From: Thermoplasmatota archaeon
GTDB lineage: Archaea; Thermoplasmatota; Penumbrarchaeia; Penumbrarchaeales; Penumbrarchaeaceae
Assembly (NCBI GenBank): GCA_965234725.1
Contig: CBDDUX010000001.1
Span: 1-49,582, forward strand
DNA: 49,582 bases
Reading direction: 5' to 3'
Position numbers and translations under genes: made by a program. The notes beneath the pieces are model-generated. The model had not been told where the DNA came from. It worked only from the letters and a program-made list of their open reading frames with translations, and made no database searches. Positions within the stretch are counted from its first letter, which is position 1, and the number at the start of each line of letters is the position of its first letter. Positions 22,849 to 35,012 of this stretch are shown here, in pieces.

Positions 22849-23187
22849 TCATCCCATCAAACTTATTATCGCTTCTGCAGGCTCTCCATCAGCGTCCTTA
22901 AGGGCTTTCAAGGCTTGTTCCCTTCCAACACCTGTCTGGTCCATGACCAATTGAATATCCTCCTCGGGCACCTCTTGGCCCAAGGACCTCTCAGTTAATT
23001 TACCCTGGATCTGGAAGGTCTTTTCACCCTGAACATTCATTATCGTTACGGAGGCACCCTCAATGATCATCTCTTTTGTCTCCGTCTCTATTATGACCCT
23101 CTTTACACCTTCCACCTCCTCCATGTTCAACCCCATCTTCCTCATCATTCTCTCCATCTGTCTGGGGTTCATCCTTCCGGGCATCAT
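22849..23187 (-). CDS. nac: Nascent polypeptide-associated complex protein
   Basis: MNPRQMERMMRKMG, EEDIQLVMDQTGV..A..AL....GEPAEAI; GGTGG SD before MMPGR. Confidence 0.93.
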   Translation of the reverse strand: MMPGRMNPRQMERMMRKMGLNMEEVEGVKRVIIETETKEMIIEGASVTIMNVQGEKTFQIQGKLTERSLGQEVPEEDIQLVMDQTGVGREQALKALKDADGEPAEAIISLMG

Positions 23188-23201
23188 GGAACATACCACC
23201 T

Positions 23202-23624
23202 TCAAAGGTCCCTGATCAAAAGCCAACTCTGATAACCAGTCATATTTCCGGTATTATCAGTCCTGAACTTCATGTTCTTGAAGACAGTGAGTTTATCATG
23301 GATAGTATTTCCGGTATCATAAAGTTCCACGATGACCTTTGAGATACCCCTCTTCTTCATCTTCTTGAGGAAGAATTTGATGAAACCTTCAGGATATTTC
23401 ATATCCTTCCAATCAGTGAAAGTGAATCCGTTCACCTTTACCTGACTACCATCGATCTCATACTCAAGGGCTCCCATTCTCTTCTGGGTTTCATAATCAT
23501 ACATCGTAAGAGACCGAACCTCACCGGTAGCGGTAGGTCTGATCAGTTTCGATTCATATCCCACGCTCTTTCCGGAGAAAAGGCCGGTCTTGATCTTGTC
23601 GTATTCAAGGTCAACCATTGACAT
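23202..23624 (-). CDS. Hypothetical protein, possible degenerate GNAT fold
   Basis: 140-aa ORF with SD-like gaggt; pattern MGALEY..VKVNGF..FLKKMKKRGISKVIVE..VFKNMKF. Confidence 0.6.
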   Translation of the reverse strand: MSMVDLEYDKIKTGLFSGKSVGYESKLIRPTATGEVRSLTMYDYETQKRMGALEYEIDGSQVKVNGFTFTDWKDMKYPEGFIKFFLKKMKKRGISKVIVELYDTGNTIHDKLTVFKNMKFRTDNTGNMTGYQSWLLIRDL

Positions 23625-26331: not shown

Positions 26332-27396
26332 TCATATACCAAGGTCATCTGGTTCTTCACCGATCTCAAAAGCAAACTTCTTGAGGAGCTTCCTGGCCTG
26401 TTCGTTGATATCATCAGGTGGATCTATGTATACTACAACATAGAGGTCACCATGATCACCTGTAACCGGGTCCGGGAAACCTTCCCCCTCGATAAGGAAC
26501 TCCGTCCGTGATCTTGTCTTCGGAGGGATCCTGAGGGTTCTTCTTCCTTCCAATGTCATGACACGTTGTTTTCCACCGAAAACCGCTTTTGGAAGTGAAA
26601 TGGACTCTTCGATGTACAGATCATTGTCGACCCGCTTCATGTTGGTCTCCTCATCGACTGCAACCGTTACCATCAGGTCCCCTCTGGGTCCTGATCCAAG
26701 ACCATGACCACCCTTTCCATTCAGTTTAATGATCGCCCCATCCTCGACTCCCGCAGGAAGCGATACAGGGACCTTGTCGACACCATTTACAAGACCGATC
26801 CCAGAGCATCTTGAGCAGAATTGCTGCATTAGGATGCCCCTTCCATTGCATGTTGAACACATTACCCTCTGATTGATGTAACCTTGAGGGGTTTGAACTG
26901 GTGCCAGAAGAGCTCCTGATCCTCTGCAGGTAGGACATTGGGATACCTGAGTATTCGGTTCAGACCCAGACCCATCACACCTGGAGCATTTGATAGGCAT
27001 GGAGATATCCACGGTCTTCTTCATCCCGTTGAAAGAATCTGCGAACTTTATTGTGAGATTGATCTTGACATCGGAACCTCTCTGGGGAGCCAGTGGAGGA
27101 CCTTGATAGTGGTATCCGGAAGAAGGAGCCGGAACTTCCTGGTTCCTTAAATTACCCTGAGATCTTCCACTTCTCAGAAGCTCAAGGTCATACTTTTCCC
27201 TCTTCAAAGGATTGGATAGGATCTCGTAAGCTTCCTTTACCTTCTTGAAATTGTCTGCAGCTCCGATCTCTTCATCCCTGTTGAGGTCAGGATGAAAGCT
27301 CTTGGCCAGTCTCCTGTAGGCCTTTTTAACATCTTCCTGGGTGGCATCCTCCTCGATACCTAAAATGGCATAATAGTCTTCCACCAAGGGGGTCAC
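26332..27396 (-). CDS. dnaJ: DnaJ chaperone (J-domain, four CxxCxGxG, C-terminal domains)
   Basis: DYYAILG, HPD, CSRCDGSG/CPTCRGSG/CSTCNGRG/CSRCSGIG, GDL motifs. Confidence 0.93.
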   Translation of the reverse strand: MTPLVEDYYAILGIEEDATQEDVKKAYRRLAKSFHPDLNRDEEIGAADNFKKVKEAYEILSNPLKREKYDLELLRSGRSQGNLRNQEVPAPSSGYHYQGPPLAPQRGSDVKINLTIKFADSFNGMKKTVDISMPIKCSRCDGSGSEPNTQVSQCPTCRGSGALLAPVQTPQGYINQRVMCSTCNGRGILMQQFCSRCSGIGLVNGVDKVPVSLPAGVEDGAIIKLNGKGGHGLGSGPRGDLMVTVAVDEETNMKRVDNDLYIEESISLPKAVFGGKQRVMTLEGRRTLRIPPKTRSRTEFLIEGEGFPDPVTGDHGDLYVVVYIDPPDDINEQARKLLKKFAFEIGEEPDDLGI

Positions 27397-27460
27397 CTTC
27401 GATTAGGGTTCTCTCGTATGACCTGATCATATTTTATTCTATCCAAATTCAAATATTCAA

Positions 27461-27497
27461 TAGGACCGGAGACCGTAACTTCCGGCTACCGGTCCTA
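27461..27497 (-). terminator. Strong hairpin directly after the dnaK stop (terminator or mRNA stabiliser)
   Basis: taggaccgg...ccggtccta 9-bp perfect arms plus inner ag/ct and ccg/cgg pairs. Confidence 0.55.
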
Positions 27498-27509
27498 CAT
27501 ATGCAAAGA

Positions 27510-29660
27510 TCATTCGAGGATCTTTATCTTGGCACCGCAGTCTGGGCACTGAACTTTAACAGGTCTGTCCGGGGTATCGATCTCTATCTCTGTTCCACAC
27601 TTGGGACAGTCGATGACCTCAGGTTCATATTCCTCCTCATCTTCGTCCTCCTCCTCCTTGACCGGGGCCTTTTTAGTTGCTTTAGGTGGTGATTTCTTCA
27701 CTGTCTTCTTCGAAGGTGGAGCTTTTTGCTCCTTCTTCTCCTCCGGTTCAGAGGATTTCTCCTCCTTGGCAGGGGCTTTCTTGGGGTTTCCCTTGATCGT
27801 ACCTTTTGCACCGCAGTGAGGACAGGTGATTTTCAGAGGCCTCTTTGGCGAGGTTATCTTGATGGGCTTCTTACATTTCGGACATTTGATGGTGATAGGT
27901 TCATAGCCCTCTTCGCTGCCTCCGGATATATCCTTATAGGCATCAGCGAACAGATTCTGTGATTTCTCGGTCAGGTCATCGATGGCGATCTTCAATTCCT
28001 TGATATTCTTCTCATCCATCATTTCCTTGACCATCTTTACGGCTTTCTTGGTATCTCTGACCTTCTTTGCATCAAGCTTTTCCTCAAGTTCCACAATGGC
28101 TTTCTCCGTGGAATAGATCAGAGCATCAGCCTGGTTGCGGAGTTCTGCAAGCTTTTTCTTCTTCTTGTCAACCTTTTCGTACTTGGCTGCTTCCTCGATC
28201 ATCTGGCCAACCTCTTGTTCGGTCACACCTGATGACGGTTGAATGGTGATCTTCTGTTCCTTTCCAGTAGCCAGGTCCTTTGCAGACACATTGACGATAC
28301 CGTTTGCATCTATATCGAAGGTGACCTCTATCTGTGGTATCCCCCTTGGTGCGGGAGGAATTCCGATCAGATGGAACTTACCAAGGGATTTGTTGTCAGA
28401 TGACATCTCCCTCTCACCCTGCACAACATGGATCTCCACCGAGGTCTGATTATCCTGAGCAGTGGAGAATATCTGGTTCTTCCTGCAGGGGATTGTGGTA
28501 TTTCTGGGTATGAGCTTTGAGGTTAGACCTCCAACGGTCTCCACCCCTAGTGAGAGAGGGGTAACATCCAGAAGCAGAACGTCCTTGACCTCACCGGTCA
28601 GTACTCCACCCTGGATCGCTGCTCCTACTGCAACACATTCATCTGGATTTATTCCCTTGTTGGGTGATTTCCCGAAGAACTCCTTGATGAAGTTCTGGAC
28701 TGCGGGCATTCTGGTCGATCCGCCTACTAGTAGTACCTGATCGATATCCTTTGGTGTAAGTCCAGCGTCCTTCATGGACCTTTTTGTGGGGCCTTTCGTC
28801 GCATCTATCAGGTCTTCTGTGAGAGATTCGAACTTTGCCCTTGTGAGTGTATAATCTATATGTTTAGGACCATCTTCATCAGCGGCAATGTAGGGAAGGT
28901 TAATGTTCGTATCAAGCCTGGAAGAAAGTTCTATCTTTGCCTTCTCAGAAGCTTCCTTCAACCTCTGCATTGCATTCTTATCTTCTCTGAGGTTGATATC
29001 GATCTCATCCTGGAACTTGTCAATGAGCCAATCCATAATCCTTGCATCGAAGTCATCGCCTCCCAACAGATTGTTACCAGAAGTGGCCTTGACCTCGAAT
29101 ACACCTTCTCCTATATCCAGAATGGAAACATCGAATGTCCCGCCTCCAAGGTCGAACACCAAGATGGTCTGTTCCTGGTCCTGTTTGTCCAGACCATATG
29201 CAAGTGACGCTGCTGTTGGTTCATTAATGATCCTCAGAACGTCCAATTTTGCAATCCTTCCAGCATCCCTTGTAGCCTGTCTCTGGGGATCCTCAAAATA
29301 TGCTGGCACGGTAATAACTGCTTTATCGATCTCCTCTCCAAGATATTCCTCGGCATCCTTCTTGAGCTTCCTTAGGATCAATGAAGAGATCTCCTGAGGG
29401 GTATAGACCTTATCATCGACCTTCACCTTGTATTTGGTTCCCATCTTCCTCTTGATGGAAGAAATGGTGCGCTCAGGATTGGTCACTGCCTGTCTTTTTG
29501 CAACATGACCCACAAGTATTTCCCCGTCTTCCGTGAATGCAACCACGGATGCCATAGTCCTACCTCCCTCTGCATTAGGGATAACGACGGGTTCACCGCC
29601 TTCAAGTACTGCCATCGCTGAATATGTGGTTCCAAGATCGATTCCTATTACCTTTGCCAT
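27510..29660 (-). CDS. dnaK: Hsp70 chaperone DnaK with C-terminal double zinc-ribbon extension
   Basis: [59 protein letters not shown] before MAKVIG. Confidence 0.96.
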
Positions 29661-29740
29661 TGTAACCCTCCTCTGATGATCATAATTTATCATTCATCGC
29701 TATTGTTTTATTATTCCCAATTTGGGAGACCACTGAATTT

Positions 29741-29767
29741 TCAACAATCCGTTAGTATAAATATATT
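29741..29767 (-). promoter_or_regulatory. dnaK promoter: TATA box immediately followed by CTAAC-N5-GTTGA
   Basis: Minus strand aatatatttata-ctaac-ggatt-gttga-aaa. Confidence 0.6.
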
Positions 29768-29835
29768 TCCCTATTTTTTATCAATGAAATAATTGGGAAA
29801 AAATAGCATTATTTCCCATACTGGCCATTTTAACC

Positions 29836-30822
29836 TTATTGGACATCCATATTGTCGACGATCTCCTCTATCTCTTCAAGTTCCTCGTCGACTTCCTCAA
29901 CATTCCCAACCTCATCGATGTCTTTGTTCTTGCCTTCCTTTTCACCATCCTTTTTCAGGTTTTTTCCCTCCTCCTCCTTTTCTTCCTTGATCTTCTTTGG
30001 CCTTGGTTTTCCTCCTTTCGAGACCCTGACCTTTGCGGCTCGAAGGACTATTCCTTCCACCACATAACCTTTAACATCAACATCAATGACTGTGTTCTCG
30101 AAGACTGTATCATCTTCGATCATACTAATTGCTTCATGGAAGTTCGGATCGAAGACCTCATTTATTGGATCTATGACCTCTATACCGTTATCATGGAGTA
30201 CCTTTAATACCCCTTTCCTGATCGATTCTATCCCATCGATCATCTGTCGGACACTGGACTTCCAATCGTTCTTCTTTGCCTCGGTAAGGGCTCTATCAAG
30301 ATTGTCAAGGACATCAATTATTCCGAGGATCAATTTCTTGGAACCCATCTTGACCTTTCTTTCCAACTCGTTCTCATTTCTCTTCTTGAAGTTCTCGAAG
30401 TCCTTCTGATTACGGTCTAGTTTCTTTTCGAGAGCATTGATCATGGCGATCTTGCTGTTCATATCCTCTTCGATCTTATCCTTCTCGGACCTAAGATTCT
30501 CCAGCTCATCTTCAAGAAGTTCGAACTCCCTCTGGAATGAATCCTTATCATCTTTCAGACTCTCAAGCTGACCTTTCAATCTTGACAGGTCCTTTATATC
30601 CTTCCTCAATCTTTTCTTTACTCCTTCAGGTAGCGGGACCTTCTGGGCTTTTTTACTGGAGACCTTTGTTTCCGGTTCTTTTTTTTCTTCCGAAGGATCG
30701 GTTTTTACCTTCTTCCGGGATTTCTTTTCTTTGGAGGAACTCTTCTTTGACTTGGGTTTTTCCTCCTCCGGCTCCTCCTCATCCTCATCGAACTCGAATT
30801 CGAATTCCTCCTCGGGTTCCAT
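29836..30822 (-). CDS. grpE: GrpE nucleotide exchange factor with long charged N- and C-terminal extensions
   Basis: KDFENFKKR, LDNLDRAL, FDPNFHEAI, KGY....VLRAAKVRV; GGTGA SD before MEPEEE. Confidence 0.92.
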   Translation of the reverse strand: MEPEEEFEFEFDEDEEEPEEEKPKSKKSSSKEKKSRKKVKTDPSEEKKEPETKVSSKKAQKVPLPEGVKKRLRKDIKDLSRLKGQLESLKDDKDSFQREFELLEDELENLRSEKDKIEEDMNSKIAMINALEKKLDRNQKDFENFKKRNENELERKVKMGSKKLILGIIDVLDNLDRALTEAKKNDWKSSVRQMIDGIESIRKGVLKVLHDNGIEVIDPINEVFDPNFHEAISMIEDDTVFENTVIDVDVKGYVVEGIVLRAAKVRVSKGGKPRPKKIKEEKEEEGKNLKKDGEKEGKNKDIDEVGNVEEVDEELEEIEEIVDNMDVQ

Positions 30823-30845
30823 TGCGATCACCATATCGTTCCTTT

Positions 30846-32283: not shown

Positions 32284-34410
32284 TCATAAAACAGAATACT
32301 CCCCTGTCCTTGGTTCGAAGATCGCTCCCTCATCCTGGAGCTTCTTCAGATATCCTTCAAGTTCATGTTCATCGATATTGATCTCAGCCGCTCTATCCAC
32401 AAGATCGCTTCTTGATATCCTTCCATCTGTCTTCTTAGTATCCTTGATGATCCTCACGATCTCATACATCTTATCCTTCTGGCTCTTGAACCCACCACCA
32501 AGAACTCCGTCAATGTCGTATGCTCCTGATTCTGTCATAGCGACATCCTTCAGAGAGAATCTCATGAGTTCTATGGCCATCCTGGAATCCTGCCTTGTCA
32601 CATTTGGCGAAAGCCTGATCCTTGCCGATGACTCAGCCATTCTTACAAGAGCTTCCAGCTGTCTTGCTGTAAGAGCCACGCTTCCACCTGTCTCACTTCC
32701 GAATGATGCATTATCTGCTCTCAGGTTCACATAGAATTCCATTATCTCCTGTTTTGCCTCTTCGTCGAGGACGGGGAAACATTCCCTTTTCGCATAGGCC
32801 ACATATTTTCTGAGGACCTCGGGTTCGAAATGTGGTTTTACCATATCTAGCAAGTTCTCATCCGATTCCAACATATTCTTCAATCTGGTGTCTCCGATGG
32901 CCTCTGACATCTTGAGCTCACCGATCCAGTGTCTTTCAAGAACCGCATTGGCCAGTTTTCTATCCTCATTGACCTTGGGCTCATCTGTCATGGTGAATAT
33001 CAGATCAAACCTTGATCGCAGAGGTGGAGGGAGATTTATCTGCTCATGTTTAGGCTGACCTATCCTGAACCTTCCCTGCTTAGGATTGGCTGCCCCCAGG
33101 ACCGAACATCTGCTTTGAAGGGTTGCCTGGATACCTGCCTTTGCGATGGAAACAGTCTGTTGTTCCATTGCCTCGTGCATGGCTGATCTATCTGATTCTG
33201 TCATCTTATCCATTTCATCGATACAGGCAAGTCCCATATCCGCAAGGACCATTACCCCAGCCTCCAGAGTATATCTCCCCTCCCCAAAATCATCCTTGAC
33301 CACAGCTGCTGTGAGACCTGCAGCAGATGTTGATTTACCAGATGTGAAGATACCCCTTGGTGCCAGTTTGCTCATGTAGGTTAAAAGCTGGGATTTTGCC
33401 GTTCCAGGATCACCAACCAGGAGAAGATGGATATCCCCCCTTCCCCTGGAACCGTCATGATATTCCTTTGACACTCCGCCAAACAGCTGTAAAGCAAGGG
33501 ATTCCTTGATGTGCTCGAGTCCAAAGACCGATGGAGCAATTGATGAAACAATATTATTGAATATCTTAGGATCCTTGGCCATCTTCCTTGCTGTGTTGAT
33601 ATCCTCCTCGGTCAGCTCCATATCGTTATAGACCTGGTCGTTGGATTCTATGCAATTTCCCTGTAGATAAATATCAAAAACCGTAGCCTTTGTCTGGCCT
33701 TCCTTTCTCTGCTTCGCTTTGAGGTTACCAGTTATGGATATCCTGTCACCGGGGGAAACCTCACCACATACATCATCTTCCAGTACTATTGAGATCCTCT
33801 GTGGTTGATCGCCACCCCTAAGACCCTCCGGAAATTCCTGTATCTCTATCTTCTGGGAGTCAATGAAAAGCGATTCTGTAATATTGAACTTGAATACCGT
33901 TGATCCAGCCCTCTTCCCACAACCACCGTCATCCTTTGGACATTCCAGCGGTTCGGTGTAATGAAATGGGTCCTGTTCGATCTCCTGTTTGAATCCGCAT
34001 GAACTACAACTGAAGGTCCCAACCAGGAGCTTGGGTCGGACCTCTGTCACTTTTCTTACGATCCCCTCCAAAGAGATGAATTTTGAAAGGTTCTCTGCCC
34101 TCAGGTTCCTGATGTTTATCTTCTCGTTCTTGAACAGATCACTGATCCTGAGATTGATGCCAACCTTCTGGTCTGGTTCCAGAAGGGAGTTCATTGCGGC
34201 CTCCCCAACCCTTATCACCATCTCAGGTCTGTCAAGGAGGGCCTCAGCAAGGTCTCCACTGAACTGGAATATATCCCTGAAACTGAGGATCACGGACCTT
34301 GTTCTAGGGTATCCATCGGCAATGGACTTGATCCTGGCTGAGAGGTCTCTAAGAGAAAAATAGTCGAGCCATAACTGATAGACCATCTCTTCGTCGATAT
34401 AACGTTCCAT
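32284..34410 (-). CDS. mcm: MCM replicative helicase (no intein)
   Basis: Zn finger CSSC..CPKDDGGC, GDIHLLLVGDPGTAKS, CIDEMDKM, HEAMEQQ, AANP, SRFD, TARQLE. Confidence 0.96.
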   Translation of the reverse strand: MERYIDEEMVYQLWLDYFSLRDLSARIKSIADGYPRTRSVILSFRDIFQFSGDLAEALLDRPEMVIRVGEAAMNSLLEPDQKVGINLRISDLFKNEKINIRNLRAENLSKFISLEGIVRKVTEVRPKLLVGTFSCSSCGFKQEIEQDPFHYTEPLECPKDDGGCGKRAGSTVFKFNITESLFIDSQKIEIQEFPEGLRGGDQPQRISIVLEDDVCGEVSPGDRISITGNLKAKQRKEGQTKATVFDIYLQGNCIESNDQVYNDMELTEEDINTARKMAKDPKIFNNIVSSIAPSVFGLEHIKESLALQLFGGVSKEYHDGSRGRGDIHLLLVGDPGTAKSQLLTYMSKLAPRGIFTSGKSTSAAGLTAAVVKDDFGEGRYTLEAGVMVLADMGLACIDEMDKMTESDRSAMHEAMEQQTVSIAKAGIQATLQSRCSVLGAANPKQGRFRIGQPKHEQINLPPPLRSRFDLIFTMTDEPKVNEDRKLANAVLERHWIGELKMSEAIGDTRLKNMLESDENLLDMVKPHFEPEVLRKYVAYAKRECFPVLDEEAKQEIMEFYVNLRADNASFGSETGGSVALTARQLEALVRMAESSARIRLSPNVTRQDSRMAIELMRFSLKDVAMTESGAYDIDGVLGGGFKSQKDKMYEIVRIIKDTKKTDGRISRSDLVDRAAEINIDEHELEGYLKKLQDEGAIFEPRTGEYSVL

Positions 34411-34583
34411 ATTGGGATCTCCTTGTTCTGCCCGGGGAGCTTCCCAATTACTACCCGGGTATTTTTATCCATCTGTTCCACGGGAAATACTGGAAATAAA
34501 TGGGTCGTTTGGGGAGTTTCCAGAAAGTGAATGTTATTTTATCAGTGTATGTGGTTACGGTGTAGATTATAATGTTCTGTATC

Positions 34584-35012
34584 ATGAAGTGTCCACGTTG
34601 TGGAAATGTCCAAGGTCTTGAGATGGGTAACAGGACGATTTCTTGCAGGAATTGCGGACTGAGGAGCAAGACTGAAACACTTGAGTTGATAGGACCATTC
34701 AAAGATCAGGAAGGAATGAGAAAACGGATCTGGGATATCAAGAGTGGAAACATGGTGGATGACGAATCGATCCTCTCAAGAGAGATGCTTGAAACATCTG
34801 GTACAAGGATTGTGAAAGGATTGAACATTGCAGGGAAGGAGAATCTAATATTGGATATTCTTTTAAATGGTCCCTTGGAAAAGGCCCAGATACTTGAACA
34901 AGTGGAACCACACGGTATCGAAAATGTGGAATTGGAGAGTATCCTTGAGAGATTGATCAGAACCAACAGGGTATTCTCTCCAAGATATGGTCTTTTCGAG
35001 GCAGTAAAATAA
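34584..35012 (+). CDS. Zinc-ribbon plus winged-helix protein (DUF1922/DUF5817-like)
   Basis: CPRCG..CRNCG at N-terminus; C-terminal wHTH-like LERLIRTNRVFSPRYG; start may be 34572. Confidence 0.7.
   Translation: MKCPRCGNVQGLEMGNRTISCRNCGLRSKTETLELIGPFKDQEGMRKRIWDIKSGNMVDDESILSREMLETSGTRIVKGLNIAGKENLILDILLNGPLEKAQILEQVEPHGIENVELESILERLIRTNRVFSPRYGLFEAVK

Follow-up and report, generated by a model that had tools for sequence, protein, structure and literature searches.

The gene dnaK1 lies on the minus strand of a 49,582-nucleotide stretch of DNA (hereafter the window; positions 1 to 49,582 of contig CBDDUX010000001.1, assembly GCA_965234725.1) from a Thermoplasmatota archaeon of the class Penumbrarchaeia. 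Its product, DnaK1, is an Hsp70 whose C-terminus carries two putative zinc ribbons joined by a charged linker. This fusion of ribbons and Hsp70 is real and old. On the reading that the evidence supports best, a class of uncultured sediment Thermoplasmatota keeps two DnaK paralogues, of which dnaK1 is the specialised one. By analogy with known ribbons, the tail would, with somewhat better than an even chance, be the docking module of a dedicated Hsp70 system.

Domain structure of DnaK1

The whole dnaK1 open reading frame (ORF), including the stop codon, occupies 27510..29693 (minus strand, 727 aa), and residues are numbered here on this frame. Its first ATG (29693) adds 11 residues. The true start is probably 29660, giving 716 aa, because 15 of 16 full-length close homologues begin with M(A/T/S)KVIGIDLG, which matches that position. 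The Hsp70 core (aa 15–586; 27936..29651, minus strand) comprises the nucleotide-binding domain, the linker, the substrate-binding domain, and the helical lid. It is covered by Pfam HSP70 (PF00012) with an E-value of 7.1e-235 over model positions 1–598 of 599, and the interdomain linker is intact. Indeed, the protein scores above both DnaK equivalog cut-offs, NF001413 (918.2 bits, cut-off 648) and TIGR02350 (902.8 bits, cut-off 822.55).

Beyond the core, a whole-protein Pfam scan placed only zinc-ribbon families on aa 600–725, all of them sub-threshold. As the original prediction had it, the protein ends in two homologous CxxC-x16-CxxC units: zinc ribbon 1 (aa 598–635; 27789..27902, minus strand; CPKC-x16-CPHC) and zinc ribbon 2 (aa 690–727; 27513..27626, minus strand; CPKC-x16-CPDC), which are 53% identical when the ribbons are aligned. 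The segment between them (aa 636–689; 27627..27788, minus strand) is a disordered polyampholyte linker of 54 aa by its part coordinates (57 aa as otherwise delimited). It is Lys/Pro-rich and then poly-Glu/Asp, again as predicted, with 15 Lys and Arg, 16 Asp and Glu, and 9 Pro. The 35-aa ribbon cores have net charges of +10 (ribbon 1) and −2 (ribbon 2), the latter becoming −5 when the YEPE flank and the terminal Glu are counted. Thus, of the opposite charges ascribed to the two ribbons, the strongly basic character of ribbon 1 stands, whereas ribbon 2 is mildly acidic and the description of it as strongly acidic was an overstatement.

AlphaFold2, run on an alignment of 14 tails, predicts four strands per ribbon with pLDDT values of 70–82. 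The linker has pLDDT values of 44–56, and the pTM of the whole tail is 0.27. The four Cys of each ribbon, i.e., eight per tail, are invariant in 14/14 aligned tails. Because of this invariance and of the strands modelled at pLDDT 70–82, the ribbons are more than a chance pattern. They presumably bind zinc.

Occurrence of the fusion in independent genomes

The relatives compared here are 41 genomes, namely 37 of the same class and 4 outgroup genomes of the phylum. The tail query matches 39 of them. An Hsp70 frame of at least 674 aa is present in 28/37 class genomes, mostly beside a short one of about 600–660 aa, and in three further class genomes the ribboned gene is cut by a contig end. In the four outgroup genomes, none of the ribbon matches lies within an Hsp70 frame. 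A protein search with residues 590–727 returned 20 clusters of 473–899 aa, all consisting of an Hsp70 with such a tail, and a tail-only search for longer proteins gave 26 matches, all of which except the weakest carry a precomputed Hsp70 Pfam domain. The tail also occurs in 15 named genome records of uncultured Thermoplasmatota, including the metagenome-assembled genome (MAG) 'Thermoplasmatales archaeon ex4484_6'. A grpE gene lies upstream of the ribboned dnaK in 13/15 related loci, the contig being cut in the other two, and a dnaJ gene lies downstream in 13/15. Where contig extent allows, the order grpE-dnaK-dnaJ is kept across the 15 named genomes.

The junction between core and tail is also found on independent molecules. 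An RNA-library contig from another study (record 5 of run X4; 1016 nt, 25 mismatches) covers 27574–28589. It starts in ribbon 2, takes in the linker, ribbon 1, and the whole lid, and reaches into the substrate-binding domain, thereby bridging the core-tail junction. Two RNA-library contigs of run X6 cover 27400–27726 and 27864–28069, and run X7 covers the region from 28009 on. The independent DNA run X2 covers 28481–29800, i.e., the core only, and the parts left uncovered in these runs carry no meaning. The RNA-library contigs count here as independent molecules with the fusion, not as proof of transcription. An assembly chimera was checked for and is ruled out by the independent genomes and the bridging contigs, so that a DnaK with a two-ribbon tail does exist as proposed.

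The original prediction had also stated that no characterised Hsp70 with this architecture was known to its author, and none was found in the searchable literature. Ribboned proteins are already in public databases, where those that are named appear as 'molecular chaperone DnaK' of Thermoplasmatota or Thermoplasmata MAGs. The searchable literature, supplements aside, yielded no description of a zinc-ribbon-tailed DnaK. A paper on the archaeal KJE (DnaK, DnaJ, and GrpE) system contains the words 'zinc' and 'C-terminal' 0 times, supplement aside (PMC12874294), and a review of Hsp70 diversification contains 'zinc' once, in a reference title, supplement aside (PMC13580251). The mentions of Hsp70 and zinc ribbons in another paper concern McrBC-linked Hsp70-like domains and not DnaK (PMC11090510).

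Two Hsp70 systems in one genome

The gene dnaK1 is flanked by its own co-chaperone genes. Upstream, grpE1 (29836..30834, minus strand) encodes a protein of 332 aa with a Pfam GrpE match at aa 110–273 (E 2.4e-38) and Lys/Glu-rich extensions of about 100 aa at the N-terminus and about 60 aa at the C-terminus. Downstream, dnaJ1 (26332..27396, minus strand) encodes a class-A-like J-protein of 354 aa with a J-domain, a zinc-finger domain, and C-terminal domains (Pfam DnaJ at aa 7–70, DnaJ_CXXCXGXG at 137–200, and DnaJ_C at 110–327). It has no G/F-rich region, since aa 71–109 contain 5 Gly and 0 Phe, and it fails the class A DnaJ equivalog TIGR02349 (306.8 bits, cut-off 377.2).

A check of the source genome (3.54 Mb, 114 contigs, 97.65% complete) for a canonical dnaK paralogue had been suggested, and the genome does contain one, in a second grpE-dnaK-dnaJ operon at about 28600–32620 of contig C10 (locus L002). 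This operon encodes a GrpE of 302 aa, a DnaK of 615 aa, and a DnaJ of 377 aa; dnaK2 has an ordinary acidic tail and dnaJ2 has a G/F-rich region. Both DnaKs of the genome are above the NCBI DnaK equivalog cut-offs. In total, the genome has 3 GrpE genes and 11 J-domain ORFs, a large complement of Hsp70 co-chaperones for a prokaryote. As a side observation, the GrpE of contig C10 is extended at its N-terminus by about 100 aa, and this extension gives a borderline match to Hsp20/alpha-crystallin (20.1 bits, cut-off 20.8); judging from this match, the protein may be a fusion of GrpE and a small heat-shock protein.

DnaK1 resembles canonical DnaK in its core of nucleotide-binding domain, linker, substrate-binding domain, and lid, in the equivalog scores and intact interdomain linker of that core, and in its grpE/dnaJ operon. 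The difference lies in the C-terminus: the canonical disordered tail has about 30 residues (PMC8215388), whereas DnaK1-type tails have 130–300 residues with two to three zinc ribbons and belong to a second paralogue standing beside the canonical one. The operon differs from a canonical one as well, in the missing G/F region of its DnaJ and the long charged extensions of its GrpE. A specialised Hsp70 system, as had been suggested, is borne out by the canonical second operon, by the ribboned operon order in 15 genomes, and by the G/F-less DnaJ that falls below its equivalog cut-off.

A maximum-likelihood tree of 35 Hsp70 cores, rooted at the midpoint only, places all the ribboned DnaKs in one clade with support of 99/95. 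The short, canonical DnaKs from families f1, f5, and f7 are its sister group, with support of 100/98. Outside both clades are the single DnaKs of three outgroup genomes and the short DnaK of genome G033. Two rows of the ribboned clade were scored ribbon-less, one of which is a partly masked tail that visibly starts a ribbon. One gain of the ribbon tail with possible loss would fit this tree.

Identity of the ribbons and their occurrence on other proteins

By sequence, the ribbons are probably MJ0042-type zinc fingers (TIGR02098; Pfam Zn_ribbon_4, PF13717, and Zn_ribbon_5, PF13719). Units of that type measure about 35 residues and have two CxxC pairs separated by about 16–19 residues, a spacing that the x16 ribbons of DnaK1 share. 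Against TIGR02098 (cut-off 20.9), the score is 30.9 bits for the tail alone and 20.5 for the whole protein. Zn_ribbon_4 (PF13717) is the best or second-best Pfam family for each ribbon alone, with 26.5 and 28.9 bits for the single ribbons and 24.8 bits for the whole protein (cut-off 30.3).

The same ribbon occurs on other proteins of the source genome: besides dnaK1, 11 ORFs reach E ≤ 0.02 with the ribbon profile, and the product of one is probably RNA polymerase subunit P. The ribbon-bearing ORFs include surface proteins with PKD, CARDB, and FG-GAP domains, two TPR proteins, a coiled-coil protein, and small proteins. In three giant ribbon-tailed surface proteins (1059, 2091, and 1464 aa), a membrane helix and then basic residues precede the ribbon. 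Poly-acidic stretches often stand before the ribbon in these ORFs, and on C47:22302–26693 (plus strand) and C69:27433–28290 (minus strand) the preceding stretches are very acidic and studded with Trp and Phe. These ORFs also include one at C10:54359–54970 (plus strand, locus L046) whose product combines an N-terminal J-domain, a ribbon of the same type, and a C-terminal helical part in 204 aa. By eye, the helical part is like the DG-x-I-x3-E repeats of the TPR-ribbon protein of contig C24 and the KaiC-like ATPase of contig C4.

A profile of 12 ribbons built from the source genome and searched against 1.84 billion cluster representatives matched 3930 of them at E ≤ 0.001. Among the best 150 of these 3930, the last ribbon lies at most 12 residues from the C-terminus in 116, while 23 start with a ribbon; a crude membrane helix is present in 74 and an Hsp70 in one. 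Pfam was run on 106 of the best 150, over-long proteins being left out, and 61 match Zn_ribbon_4 (E ≤ 1e-5) and 12 have PKD domains. The targeting module that had been proposed for the tail fits this pattern, the same ribbon type being a portable C-terminal module on many unrelated proteins.

Among solved structures, the ribbon profile matches archaeal eS27 best (E 9.5e-6, 28.3 bits), followed by LysW, the zinc ribbon of GltJ (PDB 7zok, E 1.3e-3), and ZitP (PDB 2nb9, E 0.1), and further matches are the ribbons of RNA polymerase subunit P, TFIIB, and topoisomerase. The zinc-ribbon fold of two β-hairpins fits the four strands predicted per ribbon, and the best fold matches, all weak, are small zinc ribbons, with LysW, ZitP, eS27, and Tim15 tied. 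Searching the ESM Atlas for the tail brought no usable match. The modelled fold is that of a generic small zinc ribbon, from which the functional family is not readable.

LysW and ArgW, which carry their substrate on a flexible C-terminal extension, invite a closer comparison. Ribbon 2 is acidic, ends in Glu, and is above the Pfam Zn_ribbon_LysW cut-off (29.4 bits, cut-off 27), whereas ribbon 1 is not, and LysW (PDB 3wwl) is the top fold match (Z 3.0, rmsd 1.3 over 36 residues, 36% identity). Yet DnaK1 fails the lysW equivalog TIGR01206 (25.3 bits, cut-off 53.2), and ribbon 2 lacks the flexible extension and is part of a 727-aa chaperone. A LysW-like carrier identity is ruled out by the failure against TIGR01206, only the globular-domain Pfam model being passed, and by ribbon 2 only.

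The ribbons of GltJ (Myxococcus) and ZitP (Caulobacter) are like those of DnaK1 in the CxxC-x16-CxxC spacing, the length of about 35 residues, and the two β-hairpins, a likeness of general fold. The ZitP ribbon is single and occupies an N-terminal position, and its structure (2nb9) is a fold match at Z 2.8 with an rmsd of 3.0 over 43 residues. DnaK1-type ribbons are C-terminal, in tandem, and fused to Hsp70, whereas the GltJ ribbon is N-terminal and single (PMC11135422).

Conservation and charge of the tail

When the 36 codons of ribbon 1 are compared in 15 genomes, with a mean nucleotide identity of 82%, 31 show synonymous variation alone and 3 show amino-acid replacements (I/V, L/I, and G/N). 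The Hsp70 cores of the relatives are 78–98% identical (tblastn). Therefore, ribbon 1 is more constrained than the Hsp70 core, and judging from the codon pattern it is under extreme purifying selection. The linkers of the relatives, with 57–86 aa, 15–33 Lys and Arg, 14–27 Asp and Glu, and 5–13 Pro, keep their composition and length class, but not their sequence.

The charge pattern differs between families of the tail. Ribbon 1 has +10 and ribbon 2 has −3 to +1 in 14/14 tails of family f1, all of which end in Glu or Asp, and in family f2, which belongs to the same order as f1, the ribbons have +7, −1, and +9 to +11 (two tails). All ribbons are basic in families f5 (+4, +4, +6), f7 (+10, +9), f8 (+8 to +11), and f9 (+9, +5), and the three ribbons of family f6 are all neutral (0). 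The charge of the first ribbon is thus not conserved between families, ranging from 0 to +10, and a basic ribbon paired with an acidic or neutral one is restricted to families f1 and f2. As the sequences stand, the basic/acidic pair is a derived trait of one order and not a conserved principle. The three-ribbon DnaK tails of family f8 (loci L070 and L072; P0019–P0021) have, besides, an additional segment that is conserved and lies between their second and third ribbons (approximately APPEP...EVFHEPRKGIWQPSDKEFKFGE). The DnaK1 of the window lacks it.

J-domains at the cytoplasmic ends of surface proteins

A J-domain recruits Hsp70 and fires it. At least four predicted type-I membrane proteins of the source genome end in a cytoplasmic C-terminal J-domain (Pfam). 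They are encoded at C29:46134–50861 (L050, minus strand; 1576 aa, J-domain 1503–1568), C67:3134–7756 (L056, plus strand; 1541 aa, J-domain 1464–1531), C26:58594–60702 (L051, plus strand; 703 aa, J-domain 603–670), and C22:39904–42246 (L057, plus strand; 781 aa, J-domain 691–757). Their ectodomains are large and of β-helix, FN3, and Ig-like type, and each has one membrane helix, a hydrophobic helix followed by Lys/Arg that lies 60–130 residues before the J-domain. A genome of the class has 3–12 J-domain matches, compared with 0–3 in the four outgroups from the phylum. In at least nine relatives, J-domains recur within frames of 1000–1940 aa. The literature searched gave no description of C-terminal J-domain tails on surface proteins. 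Inside the cell, surface proteins of this genome thus end either in a J-domain or in the ribbon type that DnaK1 carries, and J-domain tails appear to be a second way in which this lineage ties Hsp70 to membrane proteins.

Possible functions of the tail

For the tail of DnaK1, a role as the docking module of a dedicated Hsp70 system is the reading to which we give a slightly better than even probability. The Hsp70 core would remain a standard clamp, powered by ATP and served by a dedicated GrpE and a dedicated DnaJ that lacks the G/F region. In place of the roughly 30 disordered residues that normally end a DnaK, there would be two (in other families three) MJ0042-type ribbons on a Lys/Glu/Pro tether, and the ribbon would be, in this lineage, a general, portable, mostly C-terminal docking module. 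The partner, itself conserved, would be bound by the invariant ribbon 1, and the disordered tether, with its more than 50 residues, would bring clients around the docking site within range of the core. Because the charge of ribbon 1 varies between families, a specific partner is favoured over plain electrostatic binding, and a protein seems a likelier docking partner than a simple polyanion.

The precedents are bacterial. The GltJ and ZitP ribbons are docking domains of bitopic membrane proteins, at whose cytoplasmic ends they stand beside flexible linkers; that of GltJ first engages the linker of its own protein and, after its release from there, MglB, and ZitP binds PopZ (PMC11135422). The same logic of an unchanged engine whose C-terminal end sets its partners or place may be seen in eukaryotic tail-targeted Hsp70s, and no homology to these is implied. 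Eukaryotic Hsp70 tails are targeted through an EEVD motif read by TPR co-chaperones, and Ssb is attached to the ribosome. The source genome also has TPR proteins, and these carry the same ribbon, whereas DnaK1 has no EEVD motif and its tail would consist of folded zinc domains instead of a short linear motif.

Several points weigh against the docking reading. The term 'docking module' rests, for the ribbon, on analogy and domain promiscuity. The best solved-structure match of the ribbon is a ribosomal protein, eS27, and ribbon 1 with its Lys-rich linker would also suit nucleic-acid binding. The fold matches are all weak and tied: Foldseek gave 0 matches at E ≤ 0.001 against the PDB, and a wide VIA-align search gave no match with Z ≥ 5, the best Z being 3.0. 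A ribboned DnaK was not seen in 6/37 class genomes, five of which are at most 81% complete and one of which is 93% complete, and the DnaK of genome G026 (801 aa), a member of the ribboned clade, has a different, ribbon-less tail. Finally, a blastp comparison of the ectodomains of five J-tailed and five ribbon-tailed proteins gave 0 matches at E ≤ 1e-5. The ectodomains being unrelated by this measure, nothing points to an exchange of J-domain and ribbon tails on one scaffold.

The match to eS27 also bears on a different function, that of a ribosome or nucleic-acid tether, in which the +10 ribbon and the Lys-rich linker would bind rRNA, RNA, or DNA and make DnaK1 ribosome- or nucleoid-associated. 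Fungal Ssb is comparable in logic. The solved-chain matches to RNA polymerase subunit P, TFIIB, and topoisomerase point the same way, as do the charge of ribbon 1, which is +10 in all 14 f1 tails, and the 15–33 Lys and Arg of the linkers, and the invariance of ribbon 1 would suit a very conserved ligand such as rRNA. However, the first ribbon has a charge of only +4 in f5 and 0 in f6, and with 14–27 Asp and Glu the linkers are polyampholytes and not plain polycations. Moreover, the eS27-type matches reflect a likeness common to CPxCG ribbons in general, and their fold scores are weak (Z 2.5–3.0). Surface proteins, too, have this module at the end of their cytoplasmic tails, a place in which binding to ribosomes would hardly be expected. 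Such a tether is considered quite improbable.

Very improbable, too, is the zinc or redox switch of the original prediction. As worked out here, the zinc-bound, folded ribbons would be inert, and loss of zinc or oxidation of Cys would unfold ribbon 1 into a DnaK-binding motif that occupies the substrate cleft in cis or in trans and changes activity or oligomeric state. The eight invariant Cys would suit it, and so would the alternation of Ile/Leu/Thr with Lys in ribbon 1. Once unfolded, this pattern would resemble the DnaK-binding motif, which has a hydrophobic core and positive flanks and disfavours negative residues (PMC8215388), and the GltJ ribbon provides an example of own-linker binding as an on/off switch (PMC11135422). 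Against the switch, the same ribbons are on many non-chaperone proteins, and those of f6 are neutral and Glu-rich, hence poor DnaK clients. The Hsp33 family is not among the best 25 Pfam/NCBIfam matches listed for the protein or the ribbons; the resemblance to Hsp33 is conceptual only.

Self-pairing was proposed from the charges, basic ribbon 1 binding acidic ribbon 2. Such pairing would mean autoinhibition if it joined the ribbons of a single molecule, and oligomerisation if it joined those of different molecules. A basic ribbon (+7 to +10) does stand beside an acidic or neutral one (−3 to +1) in 14/14 f1 and 2/2 f2 tails, the same charge pattern is found in 17/17 family-f1-type proteins, and the acidic C-terminal residue is common to all 14 f1 tails. 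But complementarity is absent in f5, f7, f8, and f9 (+4 to +11) and in f6 (0), and therefore self-pairing cannot be the ancestral role; as a conserved function it falls, since the complementarity holds only in the order of f1 and f2. Ribbon 2 is, besides, only mildly acidic, and the low pTM of the AlphaFold2 tail model leaves the mutual placement of the ribbons without confidence. A complex prediction of ribbon 1 with ribbon 2, both given as alignments, returned a score of 0.00 and a mark of 0.32 and counts neither for nor against pairing. Self-pairing is considered highly doubtful.

Hep1/Tim15 is a trans-acting zinc-ribbon escort of mitochondrial Hsp70 with its own DNL signature. A built-in escort of the Hep1/Zim17/Tim15 (zf-DNL) kind, in which the ribbon would bind the nucleotide-binding domain of its own protein and keep DnaK1 soluble, is extremely unlikely. 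Both are four-Cys ribbons linked to Hsp70 and yeast Tim15 ranks 4 in Foldseek, but this match is not significant (E 0.8, rmsd 5.5 over 50 columns), and the 16 VIA rows listed at Z ≥ 2 do not include Tim15. Moreover, zf-DNL (PF05180) is not among the best 25 of the 94 (ribbon 1) and 107 (ribbon 2) Pfam families at E ≤ 10, where any unlisted match would be weaker than E 0.012 and 0.0015, respectively, and many proteins that have nothing to do with Hsp70 carry this type of ribbon.

Other genes near the operon

Archaeal genes recognised by eye near the operon include an MCM gene (32284–34410) and a NAC-like ORF (22849–23226). Beside the MCM gene, an ORF of 148 aa (34566–35009, plus strand) has an N-terminal CxxC-x(n)-CxxC ribbon followed by a helical part and a weak DUF5817 match (19.9 bits).

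Implications for Hsp70 function in Thermoplasmatota

The zinc ribbons and the J-domain tails of the surface proteins could both belong to a single Hsp70 network close to the membrane, as its two arms. Ribbon-hub or ribbon-ribbon contacts would keep DnaK1 at the ribbon-bearing tails or next to them, the J-domain tails would fire it, and its ATP-driven work would be the remodelling, clustering, or release of the inner ends of adhesin-like surface proteins. We regard this extension as unlikely. If true, archaea would have an equivalent of the eukaryotic Hsp70 systems that are tethered to one site, for example auxilin/Hsc70 and Sec63/BiP.

Hsp70 function is usually diversified through J-proteins, Hsp70 itself being uniform. 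Here, a whole archaeal class appears to have kept, for as long as the class has existed, a second DnaK with folded zinc domains in its own tail. The ribboned DnaK and the expanded set of J-domains point to a eukaryote-like, site-specific Hsp70 network in a prokaryote, and ribbon 1 may offer a handle for finding what the widespread C-terminal ribbon module of Thermoplasmatota surface proteins binds.

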